The position numbers and the translations under genes were made by a program. A stretch of DNA of 64,000 bases. Origin: Escherichia phage REP8. Of this stretch, positions 1 to 11,430 are shown one piece after another (position 1 is the first letter of the stretch; every line of letters starts with the position of its first letter). The notes beneath the pieces are model-generated. The model searched no databases. It worked only from the letters and a program-made list of their open reading frames with translations, and was not told the origin of the DNA. The stretch is from sequence record OQ174507.1. One strand, given 5' to 3'.

Positions 1-7171
<7,171 letters not shown>

Positions 7172-7173
7172 TA

Positions 7174-8346
7174 ATGGCAGTAGGTGAAATTCAAATTAGT
7201 GCCTTGCCTCAAGCAGCCTTACCAATTGACCTTAGTGATATCTTCCATCTTAAGCAGGGTATTGAGGATAAGAGATGCACTCTTGAGCAATTACTTGCTC
7301 CACACTCAAGCCTAAGAAATAACCCACATGGTGTTACTAAAACACAAATTGGTTTAGATAATGTTATTAATGCTCTTCAGTTAGTCGCTGCAAATAACTT
7401 ATCAGATATTGTTAATGTAGCTGAGGCAAGAGCAAATCTACAGATTATGTCTTCAGAAGAGGTTAATAGTCTTGTTCAACAGCATATTAATGATAAGAGT
7501 AACCCGCACAATACAACTAAGGCACAGGTAGGGTTGAGTAATGTTCAGAACTGGACAACATCTAACCTTTATAACGAGGATGCAGATAAGTATGCTACAG
7601 CAAGAGCAGTAAATAACTTGTACAAGGCTGTTCAGGCTTCCTATCCAGTAGGTACTATCCATCTTTCCATGAACTCTGCAAACCCTTCTACATATTTAAT
7701 TTGTGGAGGAACTTGGGAGTTGGTTTCAAAAGGTAGGGCATTGGTTGGTTATGCCTCTGATGCAAGACCAGCAGGTTCTGTATTTGGTGCTTCAACTGTC
7801 ACTTTGTCAGTTAATAATATGCCTCAACACTCCCACTCTGTATCACTTAGTGGTGGTGGCCACACTCATAATGCAACTGTGTCAATCTCAGCTTTTGACT
7901 ATGGAACTAAGACTACCAACTCTTTTGACTATGGAACAAAAGCTACTAACACAACTGGCAACCATACACACAATGTATCAGGTAACACAAGCACAAATGG
8001 TACTCACAACCATGATGTGTATCCTAGAGAAAATGATGGTACTGGTAATGCTGTAGCTGACTCTGATGGTGGTGGAGCATGGAGAACATCAAGAACTTCT
8101 AGTGATGGTGCACACTCACACAGTTTTAACGTCACATCTGGTGCATCAGGTGACCACAGCCACACGGTTGGTATTGGTGCTCACAGTCATACTGTTGGTA
8201 TTGGCTCACATACACACAATGGTACTGTGGCAGTTTCTTCTTCTGAGCATACACATAGTGGTAACACAAATAGTGTTGGTGGAGGTCAGGCTGTGAATAT
8301 TGAGCAGCCATCCTTCGTCCTGTATGTATGGCAGAGAACAGCTTAA
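7174..8346 (+). CDS. tail fibre protein with His-rich C-terminal repeats
   Basis: Repeated HSHS/HTHN/GxHxH motifs and tandem FDYGTK repeats in C-terminal half; C-terminus homologous to that of the next gene. Confidence 0.6.
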   Translation: MAVGEIQISALPQAALPIDLSDIFHLKQGIEDKRCTLEQLLAPHSSLRNNPHGVTKTQIGLDNVINALQLVAANNLSDIVNVAEARANLQIMSSEEVNSLVQQHINDKSNPHNTTKAQVGLSNVQNWTTSNLYNEDADKYATARAVNNLYKAVQASYPVGTIHLSMNSANPSTYLICGGTWELVSKGRALVGYASDARPAGSVFGASTVTLSVNNMPQHSHSVSLSGGGHTHNATVSISAFDYGTKTTNSFDYGTKATNTTGNHTHNVSGNTSTNGTHNHDVYPRENDGTGNAVADSDGGGAWRTSRTSSDGAHSHSFNVTSGASGDHSHTVGIGAHSHTVGIGSHTHNGTVAVSSSEHTHSGNTNSVGGGQAVNIEQPSFVLYVWQRTA

Positions 8347-8392
8347 TTTCTTTACAGGGGCTTGATAGCCCCTTTTAAGAGGAAAATTTATA

Positions 8393-10750
8393 ATGGCAGA
8401 TTACAAGTTGAGTGAATTAAACTCAATCGATACAATCCGTTCAGATGACCTTCTTCATGTCAGGGTTAAAAAGAGACCTGAAATGCTAGGTGATGAAGAC
8501 CGTCGAATGACCTATCAAGATTTCTTAGCATCTTTTAAGCTTGAAAGATTTGTTCAGATTGCTGGTAGTACTATGACGGGTGACTTAGGGATTGTTAAGT
8601 TACTTTATGGTGGTAAGGCAGTCTTTGACCCAACAGGCTCTTCTGAGGTTACTATTGGGGATGTTTTAAAGACTTTTAAAATCAACGCAAATGGTCTTAG
8701 ACTAACTATTGCAGATGCTTCAAGGTCAGCAACTGTTTATCATACTCTGAATAAACCAAGTCCTAATGAACTTGGGATGAGAACTAATGAAGAGAATGAT
8801 GCAAGATATGCAAGACTTGCTGTTACAAACTCATTCCAAGCTAAACAGAGTGTCGTAGCAAATGGTGAGCAGTTGACACTGAAGACCCCTGCGGGTGCAA
8901 GTGAGGCATACTCCGCTATTGTAGGTCGAAATGCCAATAATGATAAAACTTGGGCTGTTGGTAATCTAACTCAAGGAAGTCTTGATGTTCATCTCGAAAA
9001 TAGCAGAGGTTCAAGAATCACTCTAGGTGCAATTGTGTCTGTTAATAAGGCTCTTGCTATTACTGGTCAGGTTAAACCCTCTGATTGGTCTAACTTAGAT
9101 GCTAGATACTTTACTCAGACAGCAGCTAATCAGAGATTTGCACAGTTAACTACGAATAACACTTTCACAGGCGCTAATACATTTAGGGATATGCGTGTTA
9201 TCTCGAATTCTGCTGCTGTTACACTACAATGTGCATCAGCAAATGAATCATTTTATCTACTTGGAAAAGATTATCAAGGTGGTAACTCATGGTTTATTGG
9301 TAGAGGTAGTTCTGGAACAGAGGTTACACTCTATAACTATGTTAGTGATACATCTTTAGTGTTGTCTGAGACGGCAAGATTTAATAAGTCTGTAGAAATC
9401 ACTGGTCAAGTACAACCTTCTAATTGGACTAACATTGATTCAAGGTATGTTCCGAGTTCTCTGACAAGAGTTCTTGCAAGGACTGATTTAACTAATACTT
9501 TCACTAAAGCACAGATTATCTCTACTAGCAACGGCAACCTTTTTAGACTACAGACAACAGTACAAGATTCTGAACTCTACATGTCTGCACATAATGCTGA
9601 TGGGAACAGGAGATGGTGGTTGGGTATTGGTGGTGCTGGTCAAACCACAGTGGCACTTACCAATGATGTAACAAAAAAGTCAATCAATCTTGGTACTAAT
9701 TTAGATGTGAATACACATGTGAATATTGTTGGGCAAGTAAGACCAAGTGATTTCTCTAACTTAGACGATAGATACTACACCCAATCTGCCGCAAACTCTA
9801 GGTATATGCTTGCAGGTTATACTGGTGGAGCTTCAGAAGCAGATGGTAGTGATGGTGTTGCATGGAATGCAAAAACAGGATTATACACTGTCTCCAACGC
9901 AGCTAAGACGTATACTTACCTTGTGTATAACATGTTTTCGGGGGATGGTTCCACACCATCTGCACAATTAAAATTTCAGTTTCAAAATGGTGGGATGTGG
10001 TATAGGACATCAAGAGATGCCCATGGCTTCGAAGATAACTGGTCTAAAGTTTACACGGAAGCACAAAAACCAAAACCTTCAGATATTGGTGCATACTCTA
10101 AAGCAGAAACTGACCAGAAGATTGCACAGGCAATTAGTGACTCTACAGACCTTAACAAAATCTATCCAGTAGGCATTGTAACGTGGTTTAACAGTAATGT
10201 TGACCCTAATACAGCACTTCCTGGGTTAACTTGGACGTACCTGAACAATGGTGTTGGTAGAACTATCAGAATTGCAGCAGCAAACGGTTCAGATGTTGCT
10301 ACAACTGGTGGTTCAGATTCTGTGACGTTAGCTGTTGGTAACTTACCATCACACACCCATAGTTTCTCTGCTACCACTTCATCTTTTGATTATGGTACGA
10401 AGGGAACTAACAGTACGGGTGGGCACACTCACTCTGGTAGTGGTTCTACTAGCACAAATGGTGAGCACACTCACTACATTGAGGCGTGGAATGGTACTGG
10501 TAGAGGTGGTGATAAGATGTCATCATATGCCGTATCATACAGGACGGGTGGGAGTTATACTAATGCAGCAGGGAACCACAGTCATACTTTCTCTTTTGGG
10601 ACTAGCGGTGCTGGCGACCATTCCCACTCTGTAGGCATTGGTGCTCACAGCCACACAGTTAGTGGTAACACTGGTGGTACAGGTTCTGGTTCAGCATTTA
10701 GTGTTACTAACCAGTTCTACAAGCTAATGGCTTGGGTGAGAACTGCTTAA
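8393..10750 (+). CDS. long tail fibre protein
   Basis: 785 aa; three internal repeats of GQV[KQR]PS[DN][WF][ST]N[LI]D[AS]RY; His-rich C-terminus shared with 7174-8346. Confidence 0.6.
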
Positions 10751-10828: not shown

Positions 10829-11023
10829 ATGCCTACAATCCTAGCAATTCTTCTAAAAAATCTAGGTAGCTTCTTCTGGAAACTCATTTTATCCCTTCTA
10901 AGTGAATACATGATTGAGAAAGTGTTCTTTAAGCTTGCAAGATACCTTGCGAGTAAAACAGACACACCTATTGATGATGAGTTCGTAGATAACTTAGAAA
11001 AAGCTTTTAAGGGGGAGAAGTAA
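10829..11023 (+). CDS. small hydrophobic protein
   Basis: 64 aa, N-terminal hydrophobic segment. Confidence 0.3.
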   Translation: MPTILAILLKNLGSFFWKLILSLLSEYMIEKVFFKLARYLASKTDTPIDDEFVDNLEKAFKGEK

Positions 11024-11395
11024 ATGAAGTGGTTAGAGGAAGCTTTTAAAAATAATATTGGTGCAATTGTAGTTGGTATTTTTAGTGTTATCGGGATGTA
11101 TACCACGATGCAAGTGTCAAGTGGTAAACAAGAGGTGTCTGTCAAAACAAAGTTACAACAGTTGGATAATTACACAAGTAGCAACTATTCAGCTATTCGT
11201 GATTTACAGTCTGACATGAGACTTATTCAGTTAGGGATGGAGAACCAGAAAGTTCAGTTAGAGAATGTTAAGGGTGAAAACGCAAAACTTACCAAAACTC
11301 TTGATAAATTCTCTGACAGTGTGAACAATCTGGCTCAATCAGTATCAGCCCTCCAAGCTATTACTGAAAAGAACACAAAGAATACTGAAAAATAA
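11024..11395 (+). CDS. membrane-anchored coiled-coil protein
   Basis: N-terminal TM helix (IGAIVVGIFSVIGMY) followed by heptad-like region. Confidence 0.3.
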   Translation: MKWLEEAFKNNIGAIVVGIFSVIGMYTTMQVSSGKQEVSVKTKLQQLDNYTSSNYSAIRDLQSDMRLIQLGMENQKVQLENVKGENAKLTKTLDKFSDSVNNLAQSVSALQAITEKNTKNTEK

Positions 11396-11400
11396 AGTTT

Positions 11401-11430
11401 AAGGCTCCTTTTTACGGGAGCCTTTTTTGT
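11401..11430. terminator. intrinsic terminator (possibly bidirectional)
   Basis: GGCTCC-loop-GGAGCC hairpin followed by TTTTTT; sits between convergent genes. Confidence 0.55.

Follow-up and report, generated by a model that had tools for sequence, protein, structure and literature searches.

Seven Fe ions are bound by the histidines of the T4 long tail fibre protein gp37, and these residues are indispensable (PMC6957217). Within the genus Felixounavirus, a cryo-EM study of phage Bas63 (JohannRWettstein; Sci Adv 2025, PMC12609058) described a T4-like collar, a needle with HxH motifs, and a head on both tail fibres, compared these with the T4 gp37 tip structure 2XGF, and found the fibre tips to be highly variable.

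Here we analyze two neighbouring fibre genes within a 64,000-nucleotide stretch of phage DNA (the window). These genes encode the short (STF) and long (LTF) tail fibres of a Felix-O1-type E. coli phage. We estimate a probability of about 0.9 for the overall reading that both Felixounavirus fibres are homotrimers composed of a collar, a metal-pinned HxH needle, and a receptor-binding head, with heads that are exchanged as cassettes.

Locus and gene organization

Escherichia phage REP9 (Ounavirinae; Felixounavirus) was 100% identical in DNA to the window. Both genes are annotated as tail fibres in REP9, with the STF gene listed as 'tail fiber protein'. Gene order followed that of Bas63 gp23-gp27, where proteins of 489, 285, and 100 aa (wedge 2, wedge 1, and fibre platform) precede STF and LTF. 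The three upstream proteins were equal in length to those of Bas63 and 97-98% identical. The last of them, Bas63 gp25, was named in the cryo-EM paper as the T4 gp9-like attachment point of the long fibre (PMC12609058). Table 1 lists the features of the locus. The first gene begins at 7174 and not, as in the initial annotation, at 7780.

A GC-rich hairpin separates the two fibre genes. A simple terminator scan left it unflagged because only four T residues follow the stem. In the relatives wV8 and AYO145A, a rho-independent terminator is annotated in the corresponding STF-LTF gap. Immediately 3' of LTF are two small ORFs (10829-11023 and 11024-11395) that matched only PHROGs of unknown function. 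In relatives, a transmembrane segment is annotated in each of them. They were not adopted as candidate chaperones.

Table 1. Predicted features of the fibre locus, in window coordinates
Feature	Position	Strand	Basis
Long-fibre platform protein, 100 aa (upstream context)	6869..7171	+	phrog_4141; 98% identical to Bas63 gp25, equal length
STF gene, 390 aa	7174..8346	+	ORF; phrog_2097 tail fibre, E 1e-135; orthologue of Bas63 gp26, 76% identical
STF collar, first part, residues 151-217	7624..7824	+	Pfam Gp10_C (PF21939), E 6.6e-17 over residues 154-265; matches T4 gp10 2FKK
STF needle, outgoing strand, residues 218-280	7825..8013	+	aligns to T4 stem residues 882-931
Two 10-aa FDYGTKxTNx units, STF outgoing strand	7894..7953	+	24/30 nt identical (7894-7923 vs 7924-7953)
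STF head (tip) domain, residues 281-307	8014..8094	+	counterpart of T4 tip residues 932-959 in the alignment
STF needle, return strand, residues 308-373	8095..8292	+	HxH at nt 8113, 8155, 8182, 8209, 8248
Two 9-aa HSHTVGIGx units, STF return strand	8155..8208	+	21/27 nt identical
STF collar, second part, residues 374-390, ending ...LYVWQRTA	8293..8343	+	aligns to T4 1010-1026 (...FNYIVRLA)
GC-rich hairpin then TTTT between the fibre genes	8356..8375	+	GGGGCTTGATAGCCCC then TTTT; folds at -16.5 kcal/mol, z -2.7
LTF gene, 785 aa	8393..10750	+	ORF; phrog_4277 tail fibre, full-length match; orthologue of Bas63 gp27, 67% identical
Three shaft repeats of ~100-113 aa, each closed by GQVxPSxxxNxDxRY	8813..9781	+	Pfam gp37_trimer (PF20744), three stretches, E 2.1e-51
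Knob domain before the collar, LTF residues 474-585	9812..10147	+	Pfam gp37_C (PF12604), E 1.3e-17; 8JU3, E 6.5e-18
LTF collar, first part, residues 586-652	10148..10348	+	Gp10_C, E 2.6e-5; alignment to STF and T4 collars
LTF needle, outgoing strand, residues 653-694	10349..10474	+	HxH at nt 10352, 10424, 10466; one FDYGTK unit
287-bp patch common to T4 gene 37	10373..10659	+	264/287 nt, 92% DNA identity, AF158101 159233-159519
LTF head (tip) domain, residues 695-722, T4-like	10475..10558	+	length equals T4 932-959
LTF needle, return strand, residues 723-768	10559..10696	+	HxH at nt 10577, 10619, 10646
LTF collar, second part, residues 769-785, ending ...LMAWVRTA	10697..10747	+	alignment

Predicted tip fold and histidine motifs

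Both fibres are homologous to the T4 gp37 tip. Searches of the PDB with phmmer matched STF residues 146-361 and LTF residues 651-764 to 2XGF (E 4e-28 and 9.5e-51, respectively). Pfam matches comprised Gp10_C, three stretches of gp37_trimer, gp37_C, and Phage_fiber, with the LTF Gp10_C score falling just short of the Pfam gathering cut-off. Boundaries of the STF collar were set by alignment to the limits of the T4 D10 domain. PMC6957217 and PMC12609058 supplied the T4 domain limits and iron sites, and PMC6957217 also the stem/tip boundaries and receptor-contact residues. A W.R.A C-terminal ending was conserved across the family.

The two fibres share an HxH-rich C-terminal module, as the initial annotation had proposed (BLASTP of STF 126-341 against LTF 549-756; 37% identity, E 2e-30). 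STF contains nine HxH motifs (residues 219, 230, 264, 278, 314, 328, 337, 346, and 359) and LTF contains six (654, 678, 692, 729, 743, and 752). Every histidine of the modules lies within an HxH motif (18/18 in STF, 12/12 in LTF). Shuffled sequences averaged 1.4 (STF) and 0.39 (LTF) motifs, and none of 20000 shuffles reached the observed nine or six.

These motifs aligned column for column with the Fe-binding motifs of T4, and the histidines were nearly invariant in the family alignment. All seven T4 motifs were matched in STF, which carried two more, and six of the seven were matched in LTF. On the STF outgoing strand (HxH at nt 7828, 7861, 7963, and 8005), motifs 219, 264, and 278 aligned with T4 883, 915, and 929, while motif 230 was extra. 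On the return strand, 314, 328, 337, and 346 aligned with T4 966, 980, 989, and 998, with 359 extra. The LTF return motifs aligned with T4 966, 980, and 989, and a counterpart of the fourth T4 motif (998) was absent. Given this direct homology to 2XGF, the earlier comparison to the histidine boxes of T4 fibre tips held, with metal binding predicted by analogy.

By this homology, each protein would form a homotrimer with an N-terminal baseplate-binding part, a shaft, a gp10/gp12-type collar, and a long needle inserted in the collar. The shaft would be short in STF, whereas in LTF a knob would follow three repeats of ~110 aa. The LTF repeats were pairwise 30-39% identical by direct alignment, which together with Pfam revealed them; self-BLASTP of LTF at E < 0.01 did not. 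Their closing GQVxPSxxxNxDxRY units lie at nt 9065, 9404, and 9731, and a fourth, degenerate unit (KPSPNELG...NDARY) occupies LTF residues 121-139. Each needle chain would run out to the small head and then return, generating a six-stranded beta structure in the trimer. The segment order comes from the alignment, and the matched numbers of outgoing and returning repeats described below fit this topology. A beta-helix had been suggested initially; the fold predicted here is instead a six-stranded out-and-back needle within a gp10/gp12-type collar (PMC6957217, PMC12609058).

Single-chain AlphaFold2 models had a mean pLDDT of 67.9 for STF 143-390 (61-sequence alignment) and 65.9 for LTF 570-785 (40 sequences). 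The collars were predicted confidently (about 88 in STF and 87-90 in LTF). Needle values were about 45-70, as expected, because one chain of a presumed intertwined trimer cannot fold correctly alone. Foldseek searches of the PDB with these single-chain inputs returned gp10-type collars only (E about 0.04), and never 2XGF, so the predicted needle was not confirmed by modelling.

As with Fe in T4 gp37, stacked metal sites would pin the needle core, with all three chains contributing one HxH to each site. Judged by the number of motifs, up to nine sites could fit in the STF trimer and six in the LTF trimer; T4 has seven. When the T4 out/back register (G921 to F970) was carried over, STF motifs 230 and 359 fell at nearly equal height near the collar, making a separate site for each uncertain.

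The motifs might instead bind zinc, another metal, or none at all, either sensing pH or metal or simply providing polar packing in the core, in contrast to the iron pins of T4. A single HxH site in T4 gp12, a protein with the same collar fold, binds Zn. The Bas63 map, moreover, was too poor for side-chain placement (PMC12609058). We nonetheless consider this unlikely, as the alignment pairs these motifs one to one with the Fe-binding ones of 2XGF, the histidines are nearly invariant in the family, and substitution of T4 H929 or H931 with Ala is lethal (PMC6957217).

Matched repeats and shared head cassettes

Every repeated string quoted in the initial annotation was present: FDYGTK twice and HTVGIG twice in STF, and GQVxPSxxxNxDxRY three times in LTF. 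In STF, FDYGTK spans nt 7894-7911 and 7924-7941, and HSHTVGIG spans nt 8155-8178 and 8182-8205. T4 also has two 10-aa units (TDLGTK and FDYGTK).

Comparison of homologues revealed a relationship between the two repeats. Of 111 homologues, 108 had as many 10-aa units on the way out as 9-aa HxH spacings on the way back, across eight length classes from 1 to 6 units (Spearman 0.98), with unit numbers of 1, 2, 3, 4, and 6 represented. Here, the longest His-free outgoing gap was compared with the number of 9-residue spacings. The raw HxH spans of the two strands correlated at only r = 0.50, because some architectures lack a flanking HxH and the head gap is then mis-assigned. From these alignments, the FDYGTK and HxHTVGIG repeats appear to be two sides of one unit. 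Needle length would shift in matched steps, with one 10-aa xDYGTKxTxx unit going out for each 9-aa HxHxVxIGx unit coming back. No statement of this rule was found in the literature searched, which excluded the original 2XGF paper.

A different origin for the repeats and the shared module would be a recent duplication of a fibre gene within this genome, followed by fresh slippage at FDYGTK and HTVGIG that is now altering host range. The genes are adjacent and share the module, and Tandem Repeats Finder detected a 27-nt repeat (8149-8204; 2.1 copies, 82% matches). Small duplications in the corresponding region are also reported to have expanded the host range of T4 (Tetart 1996). However, the two modules are merely 37% identical, while the LTF needle and head are far nearer to T4 gp37 (about 85% in protein, 92% in DNA). 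All 35 of the closest STF orthologues, and T4 too, had exactly two units. Furthermore, only 4/6 (FDYGTK) and 4/8 (HSHTVGIG) codons were identical between copies, indicating that the copies are old. Recent duplication and slippage are thus largely refuted and highly improbable. The DNA-level tandem repeats noted initially do exist, but they are modest and old, and reflect a conserved structural periodicity instead of recent slippage.

The head was the most divergent part of the tip. Among 49 STF orthologues compared with REP9, the head window (residues 282-313) was 23% identical, whereas the N-terminal, collar, and C-terminal segments were 80-88% identical. Head types also crossed between fibres. 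Some STFs from other phages (P0004 and P0018) had T4-like heads, an STF-like head was present in a T4-type gp37-like protein (P0053), and Salmonella phage SP116 carried one head type on both fibres. Shared head cassettes occur in both fibre types and in T4-type gp37. Within LTF, the 10373-10659 patch was closer to T4 (92%) than to AYO145A (86.8%) or phiWec177 (90.2%), with no DNA alignable to T4 gene 37 on either side. These data bear out the initial proposal of recombination hot spots and suggest that the head, lying between histidine boxes, is the swap point. We interpret the small head as the variable, specificity-determining part and the His-rich repeats as a conserved scaffold whose units are likely crossover sites. 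Conserved flanks would permit heads to be exchanged between both fibres and with T4-type phages, changing host range.

More tentatively, and at odds clearly short of even, the needle may serve as a modular ruler. Units would be gained or lost in matched pairs, with one HxH (a predicted metal site) per step, and would act as crossovers for heads circulating among short fibres, long fibres, and T4-family gp37; Felixounavirus tips would also fold without a gp38/gp57A-like chaperone.

At the far end of the needle, the head would contact the receptor, and segment 8014..8094 is the likely contact in STF. The LTF head retains all of the T4 residues required for plaque formation (I933, N937, G938, G940, G942, G943, S947, and Y949). 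Two residues of the OmpC patch, K945 and Y953, are conserved, and Val replaces I951. Because this head nearly duplicates that of T4, its probable ligands are sugars of the LPS core, with OmpC as a further possibility. The OmpC part of this prediction is weak because LPS, rather than protein, receptors are generally reported for Felixounaviruses. The STF head, unrelated to that of T4, probably binds a different LPS-core feature. In the phiWec set of Felixounaviruses, infection needs LPS outer-core genes, and both reported fibre variants map to head domains, with phiWec177 K286E located in the STF head.

The Bas63 authors suggested that STF may act like the T4 short fibres, deploying after the long fibres bind (PMC12609058). 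On such a view, the 390-aa protein would be a late, irreversible-binding fibre like T4 gp12, or else a structural brace, and its head would have no effect on host range. This seems quite unlikely to us. The head is the most variable STF segment, the pattern expected of a specificity determinant, and apart from the collar the tip is gp37-like and not gp12-like. A late-binding role would, in any case, still rest on receptor recognition by the head.

Taking both heads as receptor-binding, REP9 would carry two different heads on a common scaffold, one of them almost that of T4, which predicts LPS core and perhaps OmpC as receptors. For engineering, 8014-8094 (STF) and 10475-10558 (LTF) are candidate swap points with conserved histidine boxes on both flanks, and the matched out/back rule provides a simple design constraint for longer or shorter tips. 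The practical value is modest but real, and current understanding of phage fibres is unchanged.

Comparison with known fibre systems

Two chaperones, gp38 and gp57A, are required by T4 gp37. When the window and the other 22 kb of REP9 were searched by tblastn, neither yielded a homologue (best E 0.19 and 9.5, respectively), and no ~86-kb, Felixounavirus-sized record occurred among the 25 of 348 gp38 matches listed. Such chaperone dependence belongs to the accessory features of T4 and not to the fold itself. The absence of these homologues suggests that these tips might be easier recombinant products than T4 gp37.

Collars of the T4 gp10/gp11/gp12 type (PF21939; 2FKK) resemble the region around the needle in both fibres, by sequence and in the confident part of the AlphaFold2 models, although no long HxH needle interrupts the gp10 collar. 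No gp12 structure was among the PDB sequence matches, and likeness to this group is limited to the collar fold, via gp10. With its nine HxH motifs, the STF tip is gp37-like and not of the gp12 type, in which a gp12-like shaft carries a head with just one Zn-binding HxH. The similarity of LTF to the Mu/P1 tail fibre S (8JU3) is confined to the knob domain (LTF 474-578 against residues 327-427, E 6.5e-18) and does not bear on the tips.

A close parallel is the T4 gp37 tip (D10-D11; 2XGF), which shares with both fibres, in one and the same order, a collar, an HxH needle predicted here to run out and back, a small head, and a hydrophobic C-terminal return (..W.R.A in these fibres, ..IVRLA in T4). 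STF, LTF, and T4 gp37 have nine, six, and seven HxH motifs, with stems of about 63-66, 42-46, and 50 residues per strand, respectively. The heads of LTF and T4 are both 28 aa, and needle plus head are ~85% identical in protein, while the STF head is unrelated to that of T4. The shafts upstream also differ, and the fibres here are single proteins on the baseplate in comparison to the kinked, four-protein fibre of T4.

Tips of this type are already published for the genus, making our finding real but ordinary. Relative to Bas63, the REP9 STF has nine HxH motifs (spacing 11, 34, 14, head, 14, 9, 9, 13) where Bas63 gp26 has seven (11, 80, 9, 9, 9, 14), along with three DYG units. There are also differences in the heads, the LTF head being T4-like in REP9 but not in Bas63. 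Beyond the Bas63 study, our analysis adds the absence of a detected gp38 or gp57A homologue, the head as a probable swap point marked by a T4-like patch, and the matched-repeat rule.

Organization of the fibre locus

The region spanning both fibre genes (7174-10750) was 100% identical to Escherichia phage REP9 and its siblings REP10-12 (Ounavirinae, Felixounavirus), in which both ORFs are annotated as 'tail fiber protein'. The first encodes a short tail fibre (STF) and begins at 7174, not at 7780 as the initial annotation had it; the second encodes a long tail fibre (LTF). The 390-aa protein already goes by 'GP37' in earlier annotations of Felix O1, wV8, and SP116. Three upstream genes encode proteins of 489, 285, and 100 aa, equal in length and 97-98% identical to gp23 (wedge 2), gp24 (wedge 1), and gp25 (long-fibre platform) of Bas63, a relative with a cryo-EM structure. 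The Bas63 fibres gp26 (STF) and gp27 (LTF) were 76% and 67% identical to those of the window.

Coordinates of features at the fibre locus
Feature	Position	Strand	Description
STF gene	7174-8346	+	complete, 390 aa
STF shaft repeat, copy 1	7318-7371		residues 49-66
STF shaft repeat, copy 2	7495-7548		residues 108-125
Inter-fibre hairpin	8356-8375		GGGGCTTGATAGCCCC, then TTTT
LTF gene	8393-10750	+	complete, 785 aa
LTF knob	9812-10147		residues 474-585, before the collar
LTF patch resembling T4 gene 37	10373-10659		264/287 nt identical
Small ORF	10829-11023		64 aa
Small ORF	11024-11395		123 aa
Two-way hairpin	11401-11424		AAGGCTCC...GGAGCCTT

The GC-rich inter-fibre hairpin lies inside the 46-nt gap separating the two genes, where relatives carry an annotated rho-independent terminator, and may lower read-through into the LTF gene. 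The small ORFs 3' of the LTF gene are conserved in all relatives examined. Their PHROG matches were confined to families of unknown function (402, 4038), and each has one transmembrane segment in the AYO145A annotation. The terminator-like hairpin beyond them, with T runs on both strands, marks the junction of the rightward structural genes with a leftward thymidylate synthase and DHFR block, and the sign of GC skew flips there.

The three GQVxPS...RY units noticed earlier in the long fibre each end one of three shaft repeats of ~100-113 aa, which Pfam matched to gp37_trimer (three copies, E 2e-51); LTF also matched gp37_C and Phage_fiber repeat. The knob matched both gp37_C and the Mu/P1 tail fibre S structure 8JU3 (E 6.5e-18). 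LTF is therefore a mosaic of modules common to Mu/P1-type and T4-type fibres. The STF shaft contains NPHxxTKxQ(I/V)GLxNVxN twice, in a stretch that draws matches from numerous unrelated PHROG families of tail and fibre proteins; this repeat may correspond to the 'triple alpha-helix and turn' motif of Bas63.

His-box tips and their matched repeats

Every string quoted in the initial annotation was found in the sequence, and both C-termini are His-rich as described, with nine HxH motifs in STF and six in LTF. All histidines of these modules fall inside HxH (18/18 and 12/12). Residue shuffles averaged 1.4 and 0.39 motifs, respectively, with 0 of 20000 reaching the observed counts. The two C-termini are homologous (37% identity, E 2e-30).

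The suggested likeness to the metal-coordinating His boxes of T4 also held. The T4 gp37 tip structure 2XGF (residues 785-1026) was matched by STF (E 4e-28) and LTF (E 9.5e-51), Pfam identified a gp10-type collar in both, and HxH motifs align with T4 iron-binding positions. T4 gp37 has seven HxH, at 883, 915, and 929 and, beyond the tip, at 966, 980, 989, and 998. In a three-way alignment STF has HxH at all seven positions plus extras at 230 and 359, whereas the six of LTF include no counterpart of T4 998. Coordinates of STF and LTF parts were transferred from the T4 limits: collar (D10) 811-881 and 1010-1026, stem (needle) 882-931 and 960-1009, and tip (head) 932-959 (PMC6957217). In T4, these histidines bind seven iron ions along the needle, and changing H929 or H931 to Ala is lethal (PMC6957217). 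AlphaFold2, run on single chains of the two tips, gave pLDDT values of ~88-90 for the collar and ~45-70 for the needle; Foldseek returned gp10 collars (E ~0.04) but not 2XGF. Such an outcome is expected for one chain of a predicted intertwined trimer and speaks neither for nor against ordered His clusters.

The tandem repeats claimed for the first fibre are present, with FDYGTK doubled as 30-nt units (24/30 nt identical) and HSHTVGIG as 27-nt units (21/27 nt identical; TRF score 77). As DNA copies, however, they are old, since the copies disagree at about half of their codons, and all close STF orthologues, like T4, have two units.

HxH spacings were listed for 120 STF-tip homologues, the window proteins, T4, and Bas63, and the longest outgoing-strand stretch free of His (G1) was compared with how many HxH spacings of the return strand measure 9 residues. 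The resulting pairs were (24,1), (32,2), (34,2), (42,3), (44,3), (52,4), (54,4), and (74,6). This rule was obeyed by 108 of the 111 sequences with G1 >= 24, although these are related by descent, which leaves the eight length classes as the roughly independent units. Two of the three exceptions retain length and have simply lost one His pair. The outgoing stretch is built of 10-aa xD(Y/L)G(T/S)Kxxxx units, whose number equals that of the 9-aa HxHxVxIGx return steps for 1, 2, 3, 4, and 6 units. Both STF duplications are therefore two faces of one structural unit, present twice in STF and T4, once in LTF, and three times in Bas63 gp26. The rule is consistent with an out-and-back topology and the published T4 G921-F970 contact, in which case the units would pair physically.

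A second needle style, found in five homologues (P0059, P0077, P0079, P0094, P0100), has 10-11 HxH per chain, equally spaced on both strands (14x4 and 14x4, or 12x5 and 12x4), and contains no DYGTK units.

Head exchange and predicted receptors

Comparison of 49 STF orthologues with REP9 gave identities of 88% for the N-terminal part, 82% for the collar, ~70% for both needle strands, and 80% for the C-terminal return, against 23% for the head. The His boxes on either side of the head are fixed, and the length between them ranges from ~34 to 58 residues. In LTF, the patch resembling T4 gene 37 is 92% identical at the DNA level, and the DNA outside it is unalignable. REP9 is less similar to the same patch in AYO145A (86.8%) and phiWec177 (90.2%) than to T4. 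The REP9 LTF head is, by alignment, T4-like, as are heads in STFs of other phages (P0004, P0018).

In Salmonella phage SP116, the short (837-2003) and long (2050-4392) fibres have nearly identical head cassettes (…VGGRYGGDSIGGKQRVQVSGTNQ…), which suggests exchange between both fibre genes inside one genome. The head of P0053, a 328-aa metagenomic protein with a T4-type C-terminus (...FNYIVRLA), reads VINPKENDGTGNAIADSDGGGATRTSW and resembles the REP9 STF head, VYPRENDGTGNAVADSDGGGAWRTSR. Counterparts of both REP9 heads thus exist among gp37 proteins of the T4 type.

The proposal of a recombination hot spot for host-range switching is thus supported at the head, which is variable between conserved flanks and common to STF, LTF, and T4-type proteins. 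Judged from sequence, the head is the swap point of the fibre tips. A mediating role of conserved motifs in such swaps among T-even fibres was reportedly proposed by Tetart et al. in 1996 and 1998.

The LTF head keeps all T4 residues whose Ala substitution abolishes plaques (I933, N937, G938, G940, G942, G943, S947, Y949). Within the OmpC patch, K945 and Y953 are kept and I951 is changed to Val. Of four other differences, V941R, N944D, and N959Y lie at Ala-tolerant T4 positions, and A955T is not listed in the T4 paper. T4-like recognition of LPS core glucose, and possibly of OmpC, is therefore predicted. LPS dependence is generally reported for Felixounaviruses, and resistance to the phiWec172/174/177 set mapped to waaV, waaW, and waaY. 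The long fibre heads of this set are also T4-like, and the reported fibre variants N777S and K286E both align within head domains.

Comparison with T4 and Bas63

T4 gp37 needs the chaperones gp38 and gp57A. Searches with tblastn found homologues of neither in the window or the remaining 22 kb of REP9, though both fibres end in gp37-type tips and one nearly copies the T4 needle and head.

The T4-like His-box tip is a known feature of Felixounavirus: the Bas63 cryo-EM paper described a collar, an HxH needle, and a head on both fibres, with seven HxH motifs in STF, six in LTF, and highly variable tips (PMC12609058). Beyond that account, the present analysis contributes three modest and unsurprising points: the matched-repeat rule, a T4 cassette 92% identical in DNA, and the lack of chaperone homologues.
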